DNA of 64,000 nucleotides, from assembly GCA_963805975.1 (NCBI GenBank), contig CAWDVR010000004.1, forward strand, positions 512,001-576,000, written 5' to 3'. Positions 51,364-64,000 of the stretch are shown piece by piece. The translations under genes and the position numbers were made by a program. This stretch comes from an uncultured Acidobacteriota bacterium. GTDB taxonomy: Bacteria > Acidobacteriota > Thermoanaerobaculia > Multivoradales > SZUA-115. Each line of letters starts with the position of its first letter. Position 1 is the stretch's first letter. The notes under the pieces are model-generated. The model was given only the letters and a program-made list of their open reading frames with translations. It was not told the origin of the DNA and did not search any database.

Positions 51364-54051
51364 TCAATGCTCTACGAGCTCGGCCGCCACCGGGTTTCGC
51401 GGGCCACCCAGGAGCGCCCCCAGGCCGAGGAAGCTTCCCAGGCGCGAGCCCAGGAGGCCGCCCTGGGCCGTCGACACCAGCCGGATGCGGTTCGCCTCGC
51501 CGTAGGCGCAGGTGAGGAACGGCGCCCCGAGGTCGAGGTCGGACATCGCCTGCCGCTGCTCCGGGCTCATCCCCGGCTCGACCATCGACAGCACCTGGTT
51601 GCCGAGCGACCCCAGGTTGCCGTAGACCACGGCCGAGAAGTCCAGGTAGCCGTCCGCCGGCAGGAGCGCCTTGAAGCTCGGGGCGTCGGGCAGTGAGTAC
51701 TGCGAATCGCGTACCGCGAGCGCCCGGTCGAGGAGCGCCCGGCTGGGGGCGGCGATGAAGTAGCCGCCGTCGAAGGTGTAGCTCACCTCCACCAGGGCGA
51801 TCGGCGTCGAGACGCGGTAGTAGGTGCGCCCGCCGACGGTCTCCTCGCCGAGGGTCACCCCCGGCTTGCCGGCGGCGGTCGCCGCCCGGTTGGCCTCGGC
51901 CACGGCCCAGACGATCGCCTGCTGCATGCGGGCGGCGTCGTAGACCTCGGCCACCACCTTCCAGGCTGGCGTCGGCAGGGCCGGGCCGTCGAGCGCGAAG
52001 GCGATCTCGCCGCCCAGCGGCGCCGCCAGGTCGTCCACCACGCTCACCCCGTGCTCGCGCTCGAAGCTGGCCAGGTGCTCGCGGAAGCCGGGCTCGGCGG
52101 CCTCGACGAAGCGGAAGGTCTCGCCGAGGATGGTCGCCGGGTTCTCCACCACGAAGGCGGCGGCGAAGTTGGCGTCGGCCGAGATGAAGTCCAGGGTCCC
52201 CATCGCCGCCGGCGCCGCCAGCCAGGACAGCGCGCCGCTCCTCGGGCCGTCGAAGTCGAGCACGCCGCCGGTGTGGGCCACGTCCTCGTTGACCTTGCGC
52301 TCGACGATCAGGTGCTGGACGTGGTCGAGGCCGGTGAAGGCCAGGGCGCCGCGGTCGCCGTGCGTGCTTTCCGCGGCCTCGCGGTCGAGGATGCGGCCGA
52401 GGTCGATGCCCGCCAGCCATTGCGCGCCGTGCGAGTAGGACTCTTCCAGGCGCTCGCCCAGGCCGGAGCCGGCGAAGCCGCTGGCGCCGGGAGCGGCCAG
52501 CCGTGCCGCCAGGGCCTGGAGCGAGGCGAGATCCGGGGCCGCGGCGAAGAGGTCGCCCGCCGGCCACAGCAGCAGCTCGTGATGAGCGGCCGGGGCCGCA
52601 GTCGCCGGGTCGGTGACGACGCGCAGCGTGATGCCGGCCCCGCCCTCGCCGTTCAGCCGCTCGACCTCGCTCGCCAGCACGGCCGCGAACGACGCCGGGT
52701 TGGCCACCTCGGCGAGGAGCAGCGGCGCGCGCGGCTCGCGGTCCGCCGCCAGGTCCATCGCCACCACGATCTCCTCGCCCAAGTGCTGGCCCAGGCCGGC
52801 CAGCCGCCGGATCATCTCGGCCACCTGGCGGTCGGCGCCGGAGGCGCCCACCCGCTCCTGCCACCACTCGGCCAGCACTTCGTTTCCGGCCAGGCGCTGT
52901 TCGAAGATCTGGTAGGCGTCGGCCAGCTCGGTGGTCACGTTCGGCAGTCCGAGATAGATCGCCGTCTCCGGCGGCGCCAGCGGCAGCAGGCGGCTGTCGT
53001 AGCGCAGGCCGGTCGCGGCGAGCACGCGGCTCACCTCGCGGTCCAGGGCCTTGAGCTCGGAGAGGAGAGCCAGGTAGCGCTCGCGGTTCCGGCTCCAGGA
53101 GACCTCCTGCTCGACCGAGGCCGCGGTGTTGCCCTCGCGGGTCGCCGCCTGGTCGCCGGAGTGGAGCACCCGCTCGTCGTCGCCCTGCTCGACCCGGACC
53201 TCGCCCTCGACCACTGCCACCCGCGAGCCCTTGGTGCCGTGGTTGACCGAGAAGATCGTGCCGGTGACCGAGACCAGGCAGTCGTCGGTGGCGACGAAGA
53301 GGTGCCCGTGCTGCTTGGCCGCCTCGACGATGATGCCGCCGCGCGCCACCCGGATCGTGGTCTCGCCGCCGCGCTCGGCCACCGAGAGGGCGGATCGCTC
53401 GCGCAGCTCCACCTTGGAGCCGTCGCCCAGGCGCACCACGGCGCCCGAGTCCTTGCCGGTGCGGATCTCCTGGCCCTCGGCGATCGACTCGCCCGGCGCC
53501 AGGGGCTTCGTCTCGTCGCCCACCAGGCGGAAGAGCTGGCCTTCGACGGCCGCCACCTGGGCGATCGAGGAGCTACGGCCCAGGAAGTCGCCCCACTGCA
53601 GCACCGCAGTGGTGCCCACGGCCACCAGCACGGCGGCGGCGAGCGCCAGCCAGCCGCGGGAGATCAACGGCCGCGCGGCGGTCCGGCGAAAGCCCGGCTC
53701 CGCGGCGCCGCTCCGGGCCACCTTCAGAGCGCGGCGGCAGGCGATGCACTCACGGCCGTGGTCCTCGAGCAGCAGCGCCTTGGCCGGGGCGAGCGCACCC
53801 TGGAGGTAAGCGGGGACCAGCGCCTGGTAGTCGGCGCAGGCGGCGAGCTGTGCGCCGGCCTGGGCAGCGACGGCGGCCTGGGCGGGGGCGAAGGCAGGCG
53901 CCGCGACGGACTCGCGGGCCAGCCGCTCGCGCACGCGGTGGGCCGCGGCGCGCTCCAGCTCGGGGGCCAGCTCGGCGGAGGCCACGGCGGCGATGGCCGC
54001 GTCGAGCGCGGCGTCGGTCGTCTGGGGAAGATCGCGGTCACGGTCGTTCAT
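51364..54051 (-). CDS. Anti-sigma factor: zf-HC2 (ZAS) + TM + FecR domain + large periplasmic domain
   Basis: HGRECIAC (HxxxCxxC), one TM helix and FecR-like LGDGSKVEL...VTGTIFSV...VAVVEGEV. Confidence 0.85.
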   Translation of the reverse strand: MNDRDRDLPQTTDAALDAAIAAVASAELAPELERAAAHRVRERLARESVAAPAFAPAQAAVAAQAGAQLAACADYQALVPAYLQGALAPAKALLLEDHGRECIACRRALKVARSGAAEPGFRRTAARPLISRGWLALAAAVLVAVGTTAVLQWGDFLGRSSSIAQVAAVEGQLFRLVGDETKPLAPGESIAEGQEIRTGKDSGAVVRLGDGSKVELRERSALSVAERGGETTIRVARGGIIVEAAKQHGHLFVATDDCLVSVTGTIFSVNHGTKGSRVAVVEGEVRVEQGDDERVLHSGDQAATREGNTAASVEQEVSWSRNRERYLALLSELKALDREVSRVLAATGLRYDSRLLPLAPPETAIYLGLPNVTTELADAYQIFEQRLAGNEVLAEWWQERVGASGADRQVAEMIRRLAGLGQHLGEEIVVAMDLAADREPRAPLLLAEVANPASFAAVLASEVERLNGEGGAGITLRVVTDPATAAPAAHHELLLWPAGDLFAAAPDLASLQALAARLAAPGASGFAGSGLGERLEESYSHGAQWLAGIDLGRILDREAAESTHGDRGALAFTGLDHVQHLIVERKVNEDVAHTGGVLDFDGPRSGALSWLAAPAAMGTLDFISADANFAAAFVVENPATILGETFRFVEAAEPGFREHLASFEREHGVSVVDDLAAPLGGEIAFALDGPALPTPAWKVVAEVYDAARMQQAIVWAVAEANRAATAAGKPGVTLGEETVGGRTYYRVSTPIALVEVSYTFDGGYFIAAPSRALLDRALAVRDSQYSLPDAPSFKALLPADGYLDFSAVVYGNLGSLGNQVLSMVEPGMSPEQRQAMSDLDLGAPFLTCAYGEANRIRLVSTAQGGLLGSRLGSFLGLGALLGGPRNPVAAELVEH

Positions 54052-54653
54052 AGCGTGGTACCTCCGAGGAGCGGTTCGAGCTCACGGCCCAGCCGGTGCC
54101 GGGTGCGGTGTAGGATGACGGCGACCGCGGTCTGCGAGGTGCCGAGCATCTCGGCGATCTCGCGGTTGCCGTGGCCTTCGAAGTAACGGAGCGAAAAGAT
54201 CTCGGCGGCGCGCGGGGAGAGGGCCGCCACCTTCGAGCGCAGCCAGCCGGCGAGCTCGCGGCGGCGGCGGTCTCCCTCGGGCCCGGCCTCCGGGGCCTCG
54301 GCCAGGTCCGCGGCCACCTCGTCCAGGTCCACCGCCCGGGCGCGTTTCCTGGCCCTAAGGAGGTCGAGGGCGGCGTTGACCGCTGCCCGGTAGAGATAGC
54401 TGGCGGCGCCGGAGGAGAGGTCGATCTCCTCCTCCCGCCGGATCAGCCGCGTGAACACGGTCTGCAGCACGTCCTCGGCGTCGGTCGCATTGCCCGTCAC
54501 GCGGTAGGCGATGCGCAGGATGCGGGAGTGGTGCTGCTCGAAGAGCTCGCCCACCGCGGACTCTCCGGGAGCCTCGAAAGGCCCGGGAGGCGCGTGGGTG
54601 GGTTGGTGGACGGCGGCGATCAAGGGCTCCTCCTTCTTCGGGTCTCTAGCCAT
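54048..54653 (-). CDS. ECF RNA polymerase sigma factor
   Basis: DAEDVLQTVF, YLYRAAVNAALD..R and region 4 NREIAEMLGTSQTAV; ATG 54653. Confidence 0.93.
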   Translation of the reverse strand: MARDPKKEEPLIAAVHQPTHAPPGPFEAPGESAVGELFEQHHSRILRIAYRVTGNATDAEDVLQTVFTRLIRREEEIDLSSGAASYLYRAAVNAALDLLRARKRARAVDLDEVAADLAEAPEAGPEGDRRRRELAGWLRSKVAALSPRAAEIFSLRYFEGHGNREIAEMLGTSQTAVAVILHRTRHRLGRELEPLLGGTTL

Positions 54654-54799
54654 AGAACGCCTCCAGTCGCGGATTCTTACCAGGCATACGAAGATGGGGA
54701 CTGGTTCGGTTCGAGCTCGCAATGCCCTGGGAGGCGCGCAGCGTTACACACGAGTAGGTACCTGGAACTCCCACGAAATCCCTTAAATCACTGCCACTG

Positions 54800-54827
54800 T
54801 TGACTTTGGAGTCGGACTGAGTATGTT
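54800..54827 (+). promoter_or_regulatory. Possible sigma70 promoter of the integrase
   Basis: TTGACT, 16-bp spacer, TATGTT in an AT-richer patch about 100 bp upstream of the integrase start. Confidence 0.35.
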
Positions 54828-54923
54828 CTTGTCCCATGAGCTACGCCCGAGTTGCGCGCCCACTGCATGCCCCTCGCATGCCGTGGAGCGTGCCCGAAGG
54901 CGGCCTCGAACAGGGAGGAGAGC

Positions 54924-56156
54924 ATGCGAGTCAAGTTCAGTAAAGCCACTCTTGCCAACGCGAAGCCGGGTCCGACGCGATACCTTCTTCGAGATACCCG
55001 CACCGTGGGGCTCGCACTCAAGGTTGAGCCCTCGGGCACGCGGACCTTCGTCTTCGAGTACCGAGTCCCCGGCAAGCCGTCGCAGCGCTACAACATCGGC
55101 CGCTACGGCGAGCCCTGGACTCTGGAGCAGGCCCGGGCCGAAGCCGGACGATTGCGCTCACTCGTGGACCGTGGCCTCGATCCGCTGACCGAGCGGCGGA
55201 AAGAGGCCAGCGAGGGCCGCAGTCTGGCAGAGCTTGGCGAGATGTTCCTCGCTCACGTCGAGAAGTGTGGGCGCCGGCCTGCCACGCTCTACCGCTATCG
55301 CCGGCTCCTGAGGCAGTTCATCCTTCCGCGCCTGGGTCTGCTGCGAGTGGATCAGATCGGCGTCGAGCACGTCGAGCGCCTCCATGGGGCTCTTCAGAAG
55401 ACTCCCGTCCAGGCCAACCTGGTCTTGGTGGTCCTGGGTTGCTGCTTGACGCTGGCGGAGCGTTGGGGGTGGATCCCTCGGGGCTCGAACCCGGTGCGGT
55501 GGGTGGAGCGCTATCCGAGGCGCAGGCGCGGGGAGAAGAAGGGCGTGATGCTCAAGCCCGAGCAGATGGCTCGGCTCTTGGCGGTACTGGACGAGGAGGA
55601 GCGAGCCGGGCGTGATCCGCTCGCGATCGGTGCGATGCGGCTTGCCTTCTGGACGGGGTGGCGAGCGAAGAGCGAGATTCTGCCTCTCCAATGGGCGAAC
55701 CTCGATCTCGAGGGCGGCGAGGCGAGGCTTCTCGGCACGAAACGGGCCGAGGAGGAGTACCGGATGCTCTGCGATGAAGCGGTCGCGGTGCTGCGGTCCC
55801 TGCCGCGCATCGACGGCAGCCCGTGGGTTTTCCCTGGGATCGATCCTGCGAGGCCGCGTCGAAACCTCCAGTGGTTCTGGGAGCGGGTGCGCAGGAAGGC
55901 CGGCCTGGTGGGCTTGGAGGAGCTAGGTAACTTCCGGCTCCATGACCTGCGTCACAACGTCGTCAGTTGGGACGTATCGCGCGGGGTGAGCTTGAAGGTG
56001 GCGGGCGCCAACGTCGGCCACAAGTGCCAACAGTCCACCGAGGTCTACGCCCACTTCCTGCCGGCTCATCTAAGAGACGCGGCCAACGCGCGCTCCCAGG
56101 CCATGCGGCAGGCCCTGGAGGCCGCGCAAGGCCGCAGCGAGCAGGAGGAGGTGTGA
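54924..56156 (+). CDS. Tyrosine recombinase/integrase (P4-like, arm-binding N-terminal domain)
   Basis: GLALKVEPSGTRTF.F.YR; TGWR, HDLRH, VGH and TEVY catalytic residues; RBS GGAGGAG. Confidence 0.93.
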   Translation: MRVKFSKATLANAKPGPTRYLLRDTRTVGLALKVEPSGTRTFVFEYRVPGKPSQRYNIGRYGEPWTLEQARAEAGRLRSLVDRGLDPLTERRKEASEGRSLAELGEMFLAHVEKCGRRPATLYRYRRLLRQFILPRLGLLRVDQIGVEHVERLHGALQKTPVQANLVLVVLGCCLTLAERWGWIPRGSNPVRWVERYPRRRRGEKKGVMLKPEQMARLLAVLDEEERAGRDPLAIGAMRLAFWTGWRAKSEILPLQWANLDLEGGEARLLGTKRAEEEYRMLCDEAVAVLRSLPRIDGSPWVFPGIDPARPRRNLQWFWERVRRKAGLVGLEELGNFRLHDLRHNVVSWDVSRGVSLKVAGANVGHKCQQSTEVYAHFLPAHLRDAANARSQAMRQALEAAQGRSEQEEV

Positions 56157-56318
56157 GGATGCCCAGGTCCAACCAACGCGCTCTAGCAGCCCGTGGGCCG
56201 CCTGGAAGCGATGTCTGCTTCGAAGACCGCGGCCCCCAAGCCGCACCCAGAAACCAAGCGGGCCGACCGAGTGCGTGAACACCCGGCCGACCCTAGCCGA
56301 CCATGGAGCCGTAACCCC

Positions 56319-56756
56319 ATGACCGACCGAGAGCAGTCTACCGCTGCCGCAATACCTCTACCCGATCCCCCTCCACCCCCCGAGGAGCCGCCCTCGCCGC
56401 CTTCGCCCTTGGATGCCTGGGAGGAGCTCCAGCCCATCCGAGAGACGTTCCTCCACCACGTGGGCAACGCCGAGACTCAGCAGGCTCTCCGCGCGATTGG
56501 CGATTACTTCTACCAGGCCGTTCTCGAATGGCGGAACTTCCCCGACGCGGAAACACCGATCATCCTGCTGGAGCTCGAAGCCGTGGCCAAGGACGTGCGC
56601 TATCTCCAGGGCTTTCTGCACCACACGGTGGCCGACGACGGCCGGGGCACTCTGGCCGATGCCCGGTACGAGCGCTGGCTCAAGGTGAAGGCCGAGGAGT
56701 GGGCCGACACCCTCGGCGAGGTCGCCACCGAGATCGAGAAGGCGGTGGCGGAATGA
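56319..56756 (+). CDS. Hypothetical protein (Pro-rich N-terminus, helical domain)
   Basis: Open frame with plausible codon usage downstream of the integrase; start uncertain. Confidence 0.6.
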   Translation: MTDREQSTAAAIPLPDPPPPPEEPPSPPSPLDAWEELQPIRETFLHHVGNAETQQALRAIGDYFYQAVLEWRNFPDAETPIILLELEAVAKDVRYLQGFLHHTVADDGRGTLADARYERWLKVKAEEWADTLGEVATEIEKAVAE

Positions 56757-57067
56757 AGCCCGCCTGCCGGAGGTCCGAGCGCCTCCAGCGACCCACCTAG
56801 AAACACTCTCTACGCCGCCCGGGCCTCCAGGAAACAGGAGAGCCCGGCGGCTTCCCCCAGCTCTCCGAAACACGACCTGTCGGACCACTGGAGGCCACCT
56901 GAGGACGCGCTGCCGGAGGGAGGGGACTCGCGAGGCCCGCCCCAAGCTGCGGCTGGAGTGGCCGTCCCTCGCAGACTCGGGTACGCGCCAGGCGCTCCGC
57001 ACGCCCCACGCCGGCGGCCCCCCTCACCTCGGCCCTGCCGCCGTCCTGGGGCGTGCTGTGGGTCGCT

Positions 57068-57091
57068 GTCCGGGAATGGCCATTCCCGGAC
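57068..57091. repeat. Perfect 24-bp palindrome
   Basis: GTCCGGGAATGGCCATTCCCGGAC equals its own reverse complement. Confidence 0.9.
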
Positions 57092-57474
57092 CTGTCGCTC
57101 GGCCAGCCTAGCCTTGGCCCTCGCTGTGCGAGGGCTTGGACATAACGCGTGGCGCTATGTCAACTTGGGCGGGGTGTCAGGGCCTGCGGCCGGCCCCGGC
57201 TTCGGCATCTCGCCGGACACTCTATGTCAGTGTTTGTTCGCGGATTCTGAGTCAGGATCAGCAGAGTCGCTCTAAGCTCAAAGGATCTATTTACGCCGGC
57301 TTGATCGAGTGGCCTATCGGGCCTAGATTGACGGCATACGCTTAGCATGCGGTCTGGCGGACGACAGAAGGCTAGTTAGCGGACTAGCCCGACAGGGCGA
57401 TCCTGACTCGCGGCGGGGCGAAGATGTCAGGGGGCGAGAACTATCCTCGCCCGAACTCGGTCCGTGTCGCAGTC

Positions 57475-57545
57475 ACCCAACGGGTTAGCATCAGTAGCGG
57501 AACGCGCGTTCTGCGGTTCTGTCTGCTGCAGGCCCCGAGTTGGCC
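57475..57545 (-). other. Degenerate integron attC-like site 1
   Basis: Minus strand GGCCAAC-TCGGG-GCCTGCAGCAGAC...GAACCGC/GCGCGTTC...GCTACTGATGC-TAACCC-GTTGGGT; 71 bp. Confidence 0.6.
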
Positions 57546-57579
57546 GACCTTTGCGATTCGAGACGATCGAACGATTCCC

Positions 57580-57771
57580 CTACCGGTCCTTGTTGCCCTT
57601 GCGGTACTTGTCGCCAGCCGCCTTATCTGCCCCATCCTTACTGACGCCTTTTCCAGAGTAGGTTGCGCCCCCTTTGTGGATCGTAGTCTTGTGAGCTTCG
57701 CCGATTCCCGTCCCGAGGAACGACGCGCTCATACGGCTGACCTTGTCCGGGCGACTACCCTTTTTGCTCAT
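57580..57771 (-). CDS. Small basic protein (63 aa)
   Basis: Strong RBS AAAGGAGG 5 nt before the ATG; ends just upstream of the attC-like site. Confidence 0.7.
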   Translation of the reverse strand: MSKKGSRPDKVSRMSASFLGTGIGEAHKTTIHKGGATYSGKGVSKDGADKAAGDKYRKGNKDR

Positions 57772-57858
57772 GGAATCCTCCTTTGATCACCGGCCGAGGG
57801 TATCACCCTCTCTGAGGCTGTGGCTTGCTGGCCACCGCTTTCTTAGACCGCTCACTTC

Positions 57859-58413
57859 TCATCGCAGTATGGCAATTCGGGCTACAGACGCGACCAAGCT
57901 GCCGGCGCCAACCGCGATGGGTACCCACCGCTCAAGAACGGCACGCACTGAAAGAACTCGGAAGTGCTGATCGATCTCGGCACGAAAGAGCCGTGTGAAC
58001 TCAGCGCGCTTCCCGCCCAGCCAGACCTCGAACTCTTCAGGATTCTCGTCTGGTTCCGGCGCGAGATTCGTGTACTGAGCGGCTAGCCTTGCGGCGGAAC
58101 TTGAAAAGACACGCTCGCGGTCCATGGCCCAAGCCTTTAGATCGGCCGTGCTGTAGATCCAGAATGCCGTCAGTAAGTAGATCTGCACCGCGCAGAGAAC
58201 TCCAAGCAGTCTGCCGGTATCACCGGCCGAGAGTTCGACGCCCAATGCATCGATCCTGGAGGGGATCACCCCTCCAACCGCGACCACGAGTTGCGTAACG
58301 CTGACGGTTAGCAATGCCCGCCTCTCTTTGCGCGACTCCTCTGACAGAGGATCTACGAGGGCCCTCGCCTCAGTGATTTCGGCCCGTTCTTCCTTTTCCC
58401 AGATCTTCGGCAT
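57859..58413 (-). CDS. Hypothetical membrane protein (cassette-like cargo)
   Basis: RBS GAGGA; about three hydrophobic segments; starts about 20 bp after the GTTGGCC core site. Confidence 0.75.
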   Translation of the reverse strand: MPKIWEKEERAEITEARALVDPLSEESRKERRALLTVSVTQLVVAVGGVIPSRIDALGVELSAGDTGRLLGVLCAVQIYLLTAFWIYSTADLKAWAMDRERVFSSSAARLAAQYTNLAPEPDENPEEFEVWLGGKRAEFTRLFRAEIDQHFRVLSVRAVLERWVPIAVGAGSLVASVARIAILR

Positions 58414-58428
58414 CGGTTCCTCATTGCC

Positions 58429-58490
58429 GGCCAACGGCTACCCGTCTGATCGCGTGGCGTCAGCCGCTCGCTCCAGCCGGTTGATTGGGC
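58429..58490 (-). other. Degenerate integron attC-like site 2
   Basis: Minus strand GCCCAATCAACCGGCTGGAGCGAGCGGCTGACGCCACGCGATCAGACGGGTAGCCGTTGGCC; 62 bp, overlapping the upstream ORF's stop codon. Confidence 0.65.
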
Positions 58491-59299
58491 ATCTTTAGGG
58501 CGCCCTTCTCTTCAGGCCAAGCTCGCTCAAACCAAGAATAGTGAGCTCCGTCCGGATCCTCGAAGTCTTCGCACGCCACCCAGATCTCCGCCTCGGGCCT
58601 CCTCGCTAGGCTCGCGACCAAGGCTCTCCACCAGGCTTCCCCGGCGTGTGCAACGGAGCCTTGCGGATCAAGCAGCACGACTTGGCGATCGTTGCTGTAC
58701 GCCGCAAACTTTTTCATGGCCGAGGCAAGGAGTCTCTCGAGCTCAGCTGTGAGCTCCGCGGGAATCGGCCTCGGCGCCTGCCACATCTCCAGCGGCAGCA
58801 GGAATCTCACGCTGGTCTCGTGGGCGTACTCATCAAGATCTGATTCGCGAAGGTGCCGCAGACTCCAGTTCGGCTGGCCCCTCTTCTCGATCCCCTGGCC
58901 AGCCTCCAGAACCGACCAGTGCTCTGCAACGATTCGTGCCATCTGCCCCACCGTCTCCTCAATCTCCGCTCTCCGAGTAGGCCGATCGCCGGATATTGCG
59001 AGCTCATAAGGGCCATCGAGCACGGCAGTTGGGAGAGCTGCACGAAGGGCACCAATCAGGGCATGATCTGACGAATGTCGGACTACGTACTCGGCCGGCC
59101 ACACAAGGCACTTCCGCTCGATAACCATCCGACCCCTGCATCGGTCGCAGTACAGTGCTTCAGGCTGGGGCGTATCCCGGATCCGTATGTCGAGACAAGT
59201 GACGTGCTCATACGCAGAGCCCTCGACATCGTTAAGCTGTTCGACTAAGGGCTGAACGCGCCAGAACTCGCAACCGCCACTCTCGGGTAAACAGCTCAT
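58460..59299 (-). CDS. Hypothetical protein (cassette-like cargo), possible PD-(D/E)xK fold
   Basis: Lower-GC 279-aa ORF; QPEALY...VIERK motif. Confidence 0.7.
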   Translation of the reverse strand: MSCLPESGGCEFWRVQPLVEQLNDVEGSAYEHVTCLDIRIRDTPQPEALYCDRCRGRMVIERKCLVWPAEYVVRHSSDHALIGALRAALPTAVLDGPYELAISGDRPTRRAEIEETVGQMARIVAEHWSVLEAGQGIEKRGQPNWSLRHLRESDLDEYAHETSVRFLLPLEMWQAPRPIPAELTAELERLLASAMKKFAAYSNDRQVVLLDPQGSVAHAGEAWWRALVASLARRPEAEIWVACEDFEDPDGAHYSWFERAWPEEKGALKMPNQPAGASG

Positions 59300-59853
59300 T
59301 AGTCCCCCACGCACGTCGCGCCCAAATCAGTGCTCTGCATTGGACGGTCCAGGCCTCCAGGATCCTTGAGATCCTCACTTGTTCGTCGAGGTCCTAGAGG
59401 GGTTAGGGCTATGTCCATGCGAATCGATTTCGGATGCCAGTACTTAGCAGCATTCTACGCCTACTTGAATAAGAGTCAACGAGGCCGAGAGCCCTGGCTT
59501 GGTGCCTCGCCCCAAGACCCCGCCTGAGCTCGCTATCGCTCGGCTCTTCCGGCTGCATGAAGAGCGACTGAAATACGGTTCACATTTGAACCTTGGTCTC
59601 TCTGTCTCACCTCTGGTACCTCTTTGCCCCATGCGCGGAGCCTGGATACCCAACCTCTCGGAGCTTGTCCGTTCAGCCCTCTTGGAGCGTCCCTCTCAGC
59701 GACCGCGGGGGGCCGAGGACGAATCTCGCCCCCTACAGCAAGCTCCTGCGTCCAGCCTCCTCGCCGTCGGTCGGTCGCTGCGAGTCAACTTCTTGCCGCC
59801 GCCTGGGCTCCGAAGAGGAGCCACCGGCAGCAAAGCATTGCCTTGGAGGGTAA

Positions 59854-60132
59854 GCGACGGATTTCTCCTCTGGCTCGGGCTCACCGTTCCTGACGACGAA
59901 GCAAGCCGCCGCGTACCTGCGCCTGGAGCCCAGCACGCTCGAGAGCTGGCGTTCCGTCGGAGGCGGCCCTGTGTTCCACAAGCTCGGCGGGCGCATCTAC
60001 TACACCCGCGCCGACCTCTAGGCTTGGATTGAGTCCCGGCGTTGCCGATCGACTGCCGAGCACTGGGCGAGAAGGTCAAGGGATCGTCCTACCGAGCGCT
60101 CCGGCTTCCTCGGTCGAACCTCGAAACCGTAA
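59854..60132 (+). pseudogene. Excisionase-like (HTH_17/AlpA) gene with in-frame stop and no clear start
   Basis: FLTTKQAAAYLRLEPSTLESWRSVGGGPVFHKLGGRIYYTRADL*AWIESRR; TAG at 60019-60021. Absent from the ORF track. Confidence 0.85.
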
Positions 60133-60184
60133 CGGTCGGGTGCTGCCGGCCGGTGCCGCTCCGAAGGACTCGGAGGAGTCGGCC

Positions 60185-63100
60185 TCACCGCCGCAGGCGT
60201 ACGCGGGCCTCCTCGCCTTCTGCCAGCACGTCTCGAATCCAGTGACCTGCCCGCTGCGCGATGCTGCGCCCGAGAGACAAGCTCCAGGTCACGGCGATGT
60301 CGAAGGCACGGGGAGCAGCTTCCGCCGAAGCGCGAGCCAGGTTGCCCAAGTGGGAGGCTGCCGCATCGGGTGGCAATCCACGACTGGAGGCGACCTCGAC
60401 CCAGGCCGCTCGCCAGGCCAGCTCTGAGACGTCCCGTGGCGGCCGGCCGGGCTCGGGAAGCTCTGCGAAGGCACGCTGTTGGCCGTCGAGGTGCCGGAGC
60501 CAGGTCACGGCCTCGGCCGAGTTGGCGAAGAGCCTGACGGCCTCCTCTGGCCGCAGAGCCTCGCCTCCGGCGAGCCGCTTCGCCCGTTCCAGGATCTCGG
60601 GGGTCAACCGCGCCAGCGCGTCGAGGCCGGCGCGCGGGTCCTCGGTCGGCCTGGCCATGGGCAGTGTGATTCGGTGAGCGGGGATCTCGATCAGGAGAGC
60701 CGCATTCAGCCGGCGCAGGGCCTCGGGGGAGAGGTCCCCGGCAGCAACCCGCGAGGTGATCTCCGCCAACCGCTCGCGGGCCGTGGCCGATTGGATGGCG
60801 AGGGCCTCTTCCACGGCTGCCCGCTCCGAAGACTCGACCCGCCACCAGCCGTAGCCGCGAAGCGCCTCGGCAGGCTCCTGGCGCGTGAGCTCACGGAGCT
60901 TCTGCTCCGCACTCGCCGGCCGGGCCTCTCGCGCTTCCGCGCGCTCCAGTAGGAGCTGGGCGACGGTTCGCTCCTGCAACGACTCCACGGCTTCCGGCCA
61001 GCGCTGGGCAAGCCCTCCTTCTGCGCGCAGCCTCGTCCAGTGCGCCTCCAGCTCGCCGAGGTGGGCGCGACACTCGGCGACGGAAGTCGAGGCGCCTGCC
61101 GGCGCCTGGGGCGAAAGCCCAAGCTGGATCAAGAGCCGCGCTTCCCGCCGAATCAATCGCTCGTAAGCGTTCCAGGTCTCGTCGGGCCGCTCGCGTTCCA
61201 GGAGTGCCCAGCCGAAGCGCTCTCGATGGAGGGAGAGCTGTACCAAGGCCAGCCGCGAGTACGCATGCTCGGCCTGCTCCATCTCTCCCCGAGCGAGACT
61301 GTAGGTGTGAGCGAGCGCCTGATAGGCGGAGATCCTCTCCAGTGACGGGGCCGCTTCGATGCTCGCCGCGGCCGTCTCCACCCGCTGCCAAGCCGAAAAC
61401 ATCTTCCCGCGCGCATCCTCGAAGGCTTGCCGAGCCTCGCGAAGCCTGCCGGCAAGCTCGCCCTCGACTACCAGCAACCGGTCTCCAGCCTCCCGCGATC
61501 CTCCTGGCTCCCGGGCCAGTGCTTCGGCGATCACCTCCCGATTGACCCTCTGGGCTCGTGCGAGAAAGTCGTCCACGGGCTCGTAGGTCCCAGCGGCGCC
61601 TGGGTCGTGAGGAGACCGCCGCTCTGGAAGTGACAAACGAGCTTCGATGCCGCCCAGACGGCCCGGAGATGGAAAGTCAACGCGGGAGTAGTGGAGCGGG
61701 ATCTCCGCGCGAGCGAGAGGCGCTTCGAGGCGTGGAGTGTCCAAACGTCGTAGCCGCTCGTGTAGATCCTCGCGGCGTTCGCTGCGCAGCCCGTCGAGCC
61801 AGGGCCGCGACGCCGAGAACGGCTCCTCCCGTACCTCGGCAAGCCTCACTCGGACCCGCTCGCCAGCCGCTTCGAACGAGGTTCCGGGGAGTCGGATGGC
61901 ATCTCGGAATATGCCCCGCGGCTCTGCGATGCCGAAGCGGTCCGCGAGGCCCTGGCGCAACGCCTGCTCCTCGTCCTGCGAGAGGGCCTGATGGCTTCGT
62001 AGCCACAGGTCATAGCGCTCGCCCGCACGAACCAGGACGGCCGGCTCGAAGCCATGATGGCGCAGAGTGACCACCTGCTCGGCGGTCAAGTCGCGAAAGG
62101 CCACCCTGCGGGACCGGTCCTCGCCGATCCGCCGCGCCAGAATCGCAGCCGCTCCCGAGCGCTCTGCCCGGCGGGCCTCGGTGAGCGCCTGTTGGAGGGT
62201 CAGGCTGCCCCGCGATGGGTCGAGCAAGCGAGCCTCGACCCGCTGCAAACCCTCTGCGGCCTCCTTGGGGCTCAAGGGCAGCACGATGTAGCTTCCTCCC
62301 GGCATGGAGCGGTCCGTGCGAAGCCAGTCGAGCGAGACGAGCTGCCGGGCCGGCAGCTCCGGCCGTTGGTTGAGCTGCCGCAGATCCTCGGCGCCGTCCG
62401 GCTCGTGTTGCAGAGCCTTGCGAAGCCTCCGAGGGCGGGAGCCCTGCTCGGGTGAGCCTTGGGAGGGAGCACTACCTGCCAGACGAAGCACCTGCTCCCG
62501 GTCGCGACCGGGATCGTAGGCGAGCTGGAAGGTGGAGACGAGCTTGCCTGCGCGGAAGGCTCGACCGAGCTGCGACCCCTTGAAGGCTATGCCATCGCGC
62601 GAGAAGGAGATCCCTCTTAGCTCACCATCCTTGTCCAAGAGTACGTGCGTCGAAAACCCTCGGGCTCGTAACGTCGCCAGAAACTCAGCAAGGGTCCGTG
62701 CGTCCCTCGCCACCTGGGCCACTTCCACCTGAAACACGGCCCGCATCGACTCCTCACCCTGCGCGGCGCGCTTCATCTCGCCTTGGCTGGGACTCTTGAG
62801 GAACGCCGCCTCGGGCGGTTCGACTCGCACGAGGTTCCATCGGTTCTCGATCTCGCGGGCGATCCGTACACAGCGCAGCTTGTCGAAAGCCTCGGAGATT
62901 GGCTGGCCCTCCCAGGTCGTCGGTGTGGTCACGAGGTGCACGTGGTCGTTGTCGGTGTCCTTGTGGAGGAAGGCCACGTAGGGCGCTTCGCCGTAGCCCA
63001 TCCTTTGGAGGAAGAAACGCACCGCCTCTCGCATCTCGTCGTCCGGCCGATGCTCGCCGGTCGCGTACGAGAGGACGAAATGCTTCACGAACTGCTTCTT

Positions 63101-63268
63101 CCTGGACCGATAGGTACTGTTGACATCCGTGATCCAGCTCGCCCACTCGCTGGGGGTGGAGCCTGGGATGTTGGCGTCCAAGAGAAAGGCGTTGGGTCGT
63201 GCCGTGCGCCCAAGGTAGTCGATCAGCCGCCGAGGCTGCGAGCCCACCTTGCACAGCTTCACGATCAC
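60185..63268 (-). CDS. MOBP-type (MobA/VirD2-like) relaxase with a central RepB'-primase-like region and long helical tail
   Basis: IDYL (motif I Tyr), HFVLSY and LHKDTDNDHVHLV HUH motif; GISF...FKGSQLG; GFEPAVLV...WL...IRLPG. Confidence 0.88.
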   Translation of the reverse strand: MIVKLCKVGSQPRRLIDYLGRTARPNAFLLDANIPGSTPSEWASWITDVNSTYRSRKKQFVKHFVLSYATGEHRPDDEMREAVRFFLQRMGYGEAPYVAFLHKDTDNDHVHLVTTPTTWEGQPISEAFDKLRCVRIAREIENRWNLVRVEPPEAAFLKSPSQGEMKRAAQGEESMRAVFQVEVAQVARDARTLAEFLATLRARGFSTHVLLDKDGELRGISFSRDGIAFKGSQLGRAFRAGKLVSTFQLAYDPGRDREQVLRLAGSAPSQGSPEQGSRPRRLRKALQHEPDGAEDLRQLNQRPELPARQLVSLDWLRTDRSMPGGSYIVLPLSPKEAAEGLQRVEARLLDPSRGSLTLQQALTEARRAERSGAAAILARRIGEDRSRRVAFRDLTAEQVVTLRHHGFEPAVLVRAGERYDLWLRSHQALSQDEEQALRQGLADRFGIAEPRGIFRDAIRLPGTSFEAAGERVRVRLAEVREEPFSASRPWLDGLRSERREDLHERLRRLDTPRLEAPLARAEIPLHYSRVDFPSPGRLGGIEARLSLPERRSPHDPGAAGTYEPVDDFLARAQRVNREVIAEALAREPGGSREAGDRLLVVEGELAGRLREARQAFEDARGKMFSAWQRVETAAASIEAAPSLERISAYQALAHTYSLARGEMEQAEHAYSRLALVQLSLHRERFGWALLERERPDETWNAYERLIRREARLLIQLGLSPQAPAGASTSVAECRAHLGELEAHWTRLRAEGGLAQRWPEAVESLQERTVAQLLLERAEAREARPASAEQKLRELTRQEPAEALRGYGWWRVESSERAAVEEALAIQSATARERLAEITSRVAAGDLSPEALRRLNAALLIEIPAHRITLPMARPTEDPRAGLDALARLTPEILERAKRLAGGEALRPEEAVRLFANSAEAVTWLRHLDGQQRAFAELPEPGRPPRDVSELAWRAAWVEVASSRGLPPDAAASHLGNLARASAEAAPRAFDIAVTWSLSLGRSIAQRAGHWIRDVLAEGEEARVRLRR

Positions 63269-63666
63269 GGCGACTCTCCAGCCGCCCTCTCGCCACCCAG
63301 CACGGCGAAGATTGTCTCCAGGAGCAGCCGAAGCCTCTCGAGGGTCGGAGCCAGGGCCTCCGGCGCCCGATGGGTGTAGGTGAGGACGAGAAGTTGGTTG
63401 AGATTGTTGCCCAGCCGGTTGAGCTCCCCGATCAGGCGCAGGTCGACCGCGGAGCGTGCGGGGCGCACTCGGTGTCGCAGTCCTAGCTCTCGGAGGTAGG
63501 AGGAGACCGCCAACCCTGCCGCAGTAGCCGACTCCTCAAGCGTAGCGAGCTCCGTGGGTGAGAGCCGAACTCGACAACCGAGGTTGCGCCGCTCAGGCTC
63601 GGGCAACTGGGGCCGGCCTCGCTGGCGAGGTCGGACACCCGATCCTTGGCGCAGTGTGTCGCTCAA
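63265..63666 (-). CDS. mobC: Relaxosome accessory protein MobC
   Basis: RHH pattern RLSPTE...A..AGL.VSSYLR and ELNRLGNNLNQL; overlaps the relaxase start. Confidence 0.9.
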   Translation of the reverse strand: MSDTLRQGSGVRPRQRGRPQLPEPERRNLGCRVRLSPTELATLEESATAAGLAVSSYLRELGLRHRVRPARSAVDLRLIGELNRLGNNLNQLLVLTYTHRAPEALAPTLERLRLLLETIFAVLGGERAAGESP

Positions 63667-63719
63667 CTCGTCGCCACTCCGGGACCGGGGCAGGAGCGCT
63701 CCTCACTTTGCGGCTGGTC

Positions 63720-63980
63720 AAATTTACGGCCGTAAACGCGGCCCGATAGTCGAGGGGTCCAGCCTGAAAAATTTTGGCCCCAAAATTCGCACAAGTACCT
63801 CAGCGAGAGCTGTTCGGTTAGGACTCGCCGGCGTGAAGTTGAAATCGGTCCGCTTCCGTTTACGGTTCGTAAATCTGCGCCATCGTCTCGGCGAGCGCGG
63901 TGGGTCAGAACTCGCCGCAGAAGCCTCTTCCCGAGCGGAGCGAGCGCTTCCGGGGGTCCAGGGGCTCGCCCCTGGCAAGC
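63720..63980. other. Candidate oriT region
   Basis: Non-coding DNA upstream of mobC with TTTACGGCCGTAAA palindrome, AATTTTGG-CC-CCAAAATT inverted repeat and CCAGGGG-GCTCG-CCCCTGG hairpin. Confidence 0.5.
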
Positions 63981-64000
63981 GGCCCGTGAGCTTGCGAGCG

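Follow-up and report, generated by a model that had tools for sequence, protein, structure and literature searches.

How do integron-type gene cassettes come to lie in a mobile element that carries no integron-integrase (IntI)? The question is raised by a stretch of DNA of 64,000 nucleotides, hereafter the window (G000:C4:512001-576000, G000 being this genome). In it an earlier note had recognised a decaying cassette array and proposed that a mobilisable island, with an integrase unlike IntI, carries it as cargo. The genes flanking the array agree with this prediction. On one side lie the gene of the island tyrosine integrase (54852..56156, plus strand), whose product contains Arm-DNA-binding and phage-integrase domains (PF13356 and PF00589) and gives no TIGR02249 match, and a conserved island ORF without a Pfam match (56193..56756, plus strand). 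On the other side lie an excisionase-like HTH_17 gene with an early stop (59880..60041, plus strand; PF12728; a longer copy on C1 is 77% identical at the DNA level), a MOB-P-like relaxase gene (60185..63268, minus strand; PF03432, with NF041325 and NF041893 below their cut-offs) and a gene for a NikA/MobC-like relaxosome protein (63265..63666, minus strand; PF21983). A conserved non-coding island segment at 63925..64000 (plus strand) matches five other places in the genome at 79-86% and continues past the window end; judging from its position, it is possibly oriT. Sister copies of the island occur on C1, C2, C5 and C6 of this genome (73-85% for the integrase and 77-91% for the conserved ORF). 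The similarity of the backbone to these sisters runs from about 54756 to about 57207 and begins again at 59880. A palindrome (GACATA...TATGTC, 57150-57190) marks the end of the backbone held in common with the C6 island, adjoining the cargo junction, and is a possible recombination or binding site.

An integrative and mobilisable element (IME) combines an integrase and a relaxase on one element, and both genes were found on the island. In G001, a distance of about 1.1 kb separates the flanking ECF sigma gene from the right-hand host gene and the island is absent; therefore, approximately 14 kb was inserted, reaching roughly the window-equivalent position 69100. The tyrosine integrase, the excisionase-like gene, the relaxase, NikA/MobC, the variable cargo and the empty orthologous site in G001 are points of agreement with IMEs, a class of element treated in PMC5704250. 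Unlike in such elements, the att sites of the island were not found and its excisionase gene has an early stop; the island is likely mobilisable. A search for attL/attR showed that no 12-bp stretch of 54701-54830 recurs as a direct repeat on the right-hand side. Instead, a pair of 27-bp inverted repeats (one mismatch) that occurs nowhere else in the genome was found a little inward of the two insertion ends (54703-54729 and, in L072, window-equivalent 69082-69108); these repeats may be the element ends or a duplicated ECF-type promoter motif. The island cargo also includes a defence-like gene encoding a 1495-aa LRR-Roc-COR-TIR protein (L072:1325-5812).

Read along the minus strand, the array consists of a TTTGGGC junction (59326-59320), ORF A, a palindrome, ORF B, ORF C, a second palindrome and a stub. 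The three cargo ORFs are co-oriented and lower in GC content (0.58-0.61) than the integrase, relaxase and host genes (0.67-0.71). ORF A (58460..59299, minus strand; 279 aa) occupies cassette 1 and runs into its own attC. Cassette 2 holds two ORFs, as had been proposed: ORF B (57859..58413, minus strand), which encodes a hydrophobic protein of 184 aa, and ORF C (57771-57580, minus strand), an open frame for a Lys/Gly-rich protein of 63 aa with a strong RBS, AAAGGAGG. The 267-bp stub after the last core (57208..57474) contains no attC match and resembles nothing in the genome or the retrieved loci; it is likely a truncated third cassette.

Sequence inspection located both imperfect palindromes, of 62 bp (58429..58490) and 71 bp (57475..57545), and, on the minus strand, the two cores and two inverse cores at the positions given in the earlier note. 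The self-complementarity that the earlier note had seen within each unit was also found: TTGGGC (59320-59325) pairs with GCCCAA (58485-58490), and GTTGGCC (58429-58435) with GGCCAAC (57539-57545). In both units the inverse core fits the upstream core of its own unit (6/6 bases) and not the core that follows. The joint chance of this agreement is about 0.016, as calculated from the 4-mer frequencies of the training set described below.

Because an Rfam scan of 54000-64000 yielded only three chance matches (E 1.9-3.7), we built our own attC model. A search of 40 relatives for IntI found intact IntI in 12, and 12 regions were taken for attC candidates. The candidate pattern demanded AAC, GTT and paired L boxes, and 25 aligned sites were hand-picked from the candidates for the covariance model R1; all of these came from complete integrons of relatives and none from this genome. 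In the training alignment, 89% of the cells are paired and 13/21 pairs show two-sided changes, partly by construction. When R1 was run on the 64-kb window with filters off, 22 matches were obtained at E<=5, and the first two ranks were the two palindromes on the expected strand. An attC model thus gave a signal at both sites, so that the first of the two refuting conditions named in the earlier note did not hold. The site at 57475-57545 scored 35.0 bits (E 7e-7) and that at 58429-58490 scored 22.1 bits (E 0.002), the E-values being rough. The third-best match in the window is background at 19.7 bits, so that the 58429 site taken alone stands barely (2.4 bits) above background. A GTCTAAG word after ORF B raised the possibility of a further attC ahead of ORF C, but R1 gave no match there. 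Other attC sites, in 13 regions of this genome, gave 12 matches with E<0.001 at 26.8-57.8 bits. A genome-wide R1 search scored 150 candidates and missed the window's own sites; therefore, the attC counts for the genome are lower bounds.

The earlier note had held that both attC sites are eroding, and this is clear for one of them. Each end of attC has a conserved triplet, AAC at one and GTT at the other (PMC2727003), and both triplets are present in the 57475 site (GGCCAAC ... GTTGGGT), an imperfect but well-formed attC. Its bottom strand folds end to end (-15.3 kcal/mol) with two mismatches in the L arm, and its 35 bits fall within the range of the other attC sites of the genome, so it appears normal. 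The proximal site at 58429, on the other hand, is degraded. It reads AAT in place of AAC (inverse core GCCCAAT), its L boxes are mismatched, and five positions are not paired in the model and its fold is shifted. It shares 46/62 bases with an intact attC of a relative (L063) that belongs to the R1 training set, and its bottom strand folds at -9.8 kcal/mol compared with -22.7 kcal/mol for that relative's site. Decay was also found at the attI core, as described below.

Homologues of the cassette genes were examined for their surroundings. ORF A gave no Pfam, NCBIfam or PADLOC match and has nine homologues at 32-43%. Its structure model (pLDDT 82.5) has a predicted PD-(D/E)xK nuclease-like fold: the top structural matches were proteins with the restriction-endonuclease fold, mainly PD-(D/E)xK, at Z 6-7, the best reaching up to Z 7.0 with an rmsd of 4.0 over 138 aligned residues. 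Foldseek found no match for the model at E<=0.001, and the Atlas returned unnamed clusters only (0.94). Since the structural Z score is middling, the nuclease role is a prediction only; ORF A is possibly a defence or toxic nuclease. Relatives of ORF A were found at 15 genome loci, with record titles mostly from Acidobacteriota. The closest of them (43%; L012) lies amid 14 attC matches, with GTTAGGC at one boundary and GCCTAAC at the other; another (L009) has one attC about 1 kb upstream, and attC is absent at the remaining 13/15. ORF B had no match to a named family, but its own family is large (2038 representatives at E<=0.001), and homologues at 79-99% identity exist. Among its three loci, drawn from 400 genomes, one is directly behind two attC sites and two are without attC. 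A Pfam scan of 16 relatives of ORF B and three of ORF A gave nothing above the cut-off. For ORF C, no Pfam match and no homologue in the genome or the retrieved loci were found. Homologues of ORF A and ORF B are therefore cassette-borne in some genomes, with attC arrays at 2/15 and 1/3 of the loci, respectively, and the second refuting condition of the earlier note did not hold either.

The head of the array lies just outside the span of 57475..59326 covered by the earlier note and was missed there. It contains a predicted Pc-like cassette promoter (59452..59479, minus strand; TTGACT, 16 nt, TAGAAT) that fits the sigma-70-type consensus at 10/12 positions, is one of two consensus matches in 54500-64000 (0.5 expected in shuffles), faces the cassettes and is kept in paralogous array heads. 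The segment at 59326..59494 (minus strand), hereafter the platform, is similar to paralogues at C4:11.6k (76% over 168 nt) and C4:41.1k (78% over 159 nt), and the similarity stops at the first cassette junction. The platforms at these two places end at G/TTAG directly before an ORF and head arrays of two and three attC sites, and one of them lies about 600 bp 3' of a co-oriented remnant of the 3' part of intI, which encodes a 47-aa C-terminal piece of IntI with 87% identity to a relative's IntI. Based on these sequence comparisons, 59326-59494 is likely a Pc plus attI. An alignment of eight platform ends revealed AA..AGA.GC before the junction in all of them; the junction core is G/TT in five, T/TT in the window and GTA and GTC in the two others. 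Recombination occurs between G and TT of GTTRRRY, which is also the attI core (PMC8876359). At the homologous site of the window (59320..59326, minus strand), the attI/cassette-1 junction reads TTTGGGC; the base ahead of the first core is T instead of G, the core G having been lost.

A profile of the eight platforms recovered the six distinct genome copies used to build it and seven partial matches on the promoter side. A profile of three distant platforms, one of them from a complete integron, matched the window copy only in the promoter part and at E 2.4; therefore, what connects the window copy with a complete integron is the paralogue with the intI remnant, together with an alignment made by eye. 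The platform segment gave convincing scores in two of 61 genomes, this genome and G001. A metagenome scan with the promoter motif gave two matches, both within unrelated coding sequence and without attC. Other platforms showed varied surroundings. At C4:41.1-42.6k (L066:15100-16600), a frameshifted gene for a non-IntI tyrosine recombinase lies directly upstream of the three-attC platform, at the place of intI. L065:7300-12400 contains two convergent arrays with two platform subtypes and an intI remnant cut off by another gene. In G001 (L053:9400-10860), a platform with one cassette lies between two genes of a large repeated cluster with no intI adjoining, and this insertion is missing at the orthologous site of G000.

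No intact intI was detected in this genome, which is 96% complete, by a TIGR02249 search (best 69.6 bits against a cut-off of 265); at that completeness an intI may have been missed. A tblastn search of the window with a relative's IntI gave only a weak match, to the island integrase, and neither intI nor a remnant of it was found. In the relatives, attC candidates lie downstream on the intI strand at 8 of the 10 intI loci with a located C-terminus. The promoter and attI can therefore part cleanly from intI. Two further loci in other genomes were recorded. G017 contains near-identical complete integrons (L057 and L058) with a repeated attC type of 132 bp and a transposase gene directly after attI. 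At L168:6400-9500 (G002:C70), two attC sites lie near a distant relative of the island integrase, close to rpsI-rplM, and no platform was detected.

We consider it probable that the array derives from an integron of this lineage, as a fragment comprising a predicted promoter, a likely attI, two cassettes and the stub that was separated from intI and joined to the island, with recombination likely stopped and the promoter kept. The attC-like sites, the matching cores, the array head common to other arrays and the lack of an intact intI in the assembly were observed directly. IntI would first have loaded two or more cassettes at the attI of a chromosomal integron, and the promoter, attI and cassettes would then have been cut away from intI and joined to the island. 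With the core G gone from attI and AAC from the first attC, the cassettes would likely have become fixed in place, and the kept promoter likely still transcribes ORFs A-C. Given such predicted transcription, these ORFs would be expressed on the island like ordinary cargo genes. The capture of two former cassettes by the island, as the earlier note had it, is thus supported in a refined form: because the cassettes are not loose but sit behind the promoter and an attI-like segment, what entered the island was likely a block that had been cut out of an integron.

The strongest alternative, which we regard as improbable, is that the island family itself is a satellite integron that carries a promoter and attI and is loaded in trans by the IntI of its hosts, the window copy having since been locked. 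On a sister island at the overlapping C6/C2 ends (L068:500-8600 and L073:1-2100), the oriT-like segment is fused to an attI-like site that follows it directly and whose G/TT core is intact, and three attC sites are present. In addition, six full-length platforms without an intact intI occur in this genome, five of them with attC downstream, and intact IntI is present in 12/40 relatives. These features would fit such loading, and an integrase-less satellite island might move expressed cassettes between the many orphan platforms of the lineage, filled by the IntI of the hosts that it visits; we hold this to be doubtful. The island of the window and this sister island have different platform subtypes at different positions, and platforms were found outside islands too. 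No attC was detected at the three other sister loci scanned in this genome, two of which end at contig ends. In other genomes, attC was found at 0/20 loci of distant homologues of the island ORF and at 1/16 loci of integrase homologues, that one without a detectable platform, several loci of both sets being cut by contig ends. An IS transposase gene, which we take to be IS110-like, lies directly behind the first attC of the C6/C2 island, and the same IS follows an attC at C4:8236.

Insertion of the cassettes by IntI in trans at a secondary site within the island, with no true attI, would account for the non-canonical first junction and is a described source of CALINs (PMC4889954). It is very unlikely here, since homology to other array heads extends over the 165 bp upstream and breaks off at the junction; the platform homology already largely refutes it. 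Capture by the island's own tyrosine integrase is less probable still. An intact gene for it stands at a distance of about 1.3 kb from the last attC, and at C4:41.6k a different non-IntI recombinase gene immediately precedes a platform, but the integrase has no TIGR02249 match and aligns with a relative's IntI over only 41 aa at 29%, and most sister loci lack attC. The reading of the palindromes as hairpins that arose by chance in GC-rich DNA, or as terminators, as background matches of up to 19.7 bits and the fit of part of the 57475 site to a terminator pattern might suggest, is refuted by the 35 bits of that site, the 46/62 identity of the other to an intact attC, the matching cores, the position at ORF ends and the platform upstream taken together, and we give it hardly any credence.

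The fragment can be compared with known systems. A CALIN is a cluster of attC sites lacking an integron-integrase (Cury et al. 2016, PMC4889954). Like a CALIN, defined by at least two attC within 4 kb on one strand, the window has co-oriented attC sites, 0.9 kb apart (E 7e-7 and 0.002 with our own model R1), no intI nearby, few cassettes of unknown function and degenerate attC. Unlike a CALIN, it keeps a promoter and an attI-like site at its head (attI is not considered in the CALIN definition); since these remain, the cassettes could still be expressed. Complete integrons differ from the window in having an intI gene and a GTTRRRY core at attI; the predicted Pc faces the cassettes and its consensus is kept in paralogues. 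Integrons with attC downstream on the intI strand form the inverted integron-integrase group described in PMC4889954. This layout was found in the complete integrons of relatives and at the C4 intI remnant; the window copy differs from the group in having neither intI nor a remnant of it. According to PMC4889954, half of the CALINs occur in genomes without intI, and degenerate CALINs are proposed to represent a stage on the way to fixation. In Xanthomonas, a conjugative plasmid is reported to carry a CALIN (10.1101/2025.06.18.660453). Both settings, a genome without intI and a mobile element, are thus known for CALINs, and the window case is such a remnant with a kept platform. Judged by titles and the starts of abstracts, the literature searched contained nothing on intI-less promoter-attI platforms on IMEs.

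From its sequence, the array is a CALIN-type fragment with its platform kept, likely immobilised and likely still transcribed. As such, it would be a clear example of cassette fixation, in which the promoter is kept while the recombination sites decay, and it bears on a question that PMC4889954 raises, namely whether the genes in CALINs are expressed. In addition, it shows how cassettes of sedentary integrons can enter a mobile element without intI, which is of modest weight as a single case. If it were true that such islands are routinely loaded in trans, the finding would be of greater importance.
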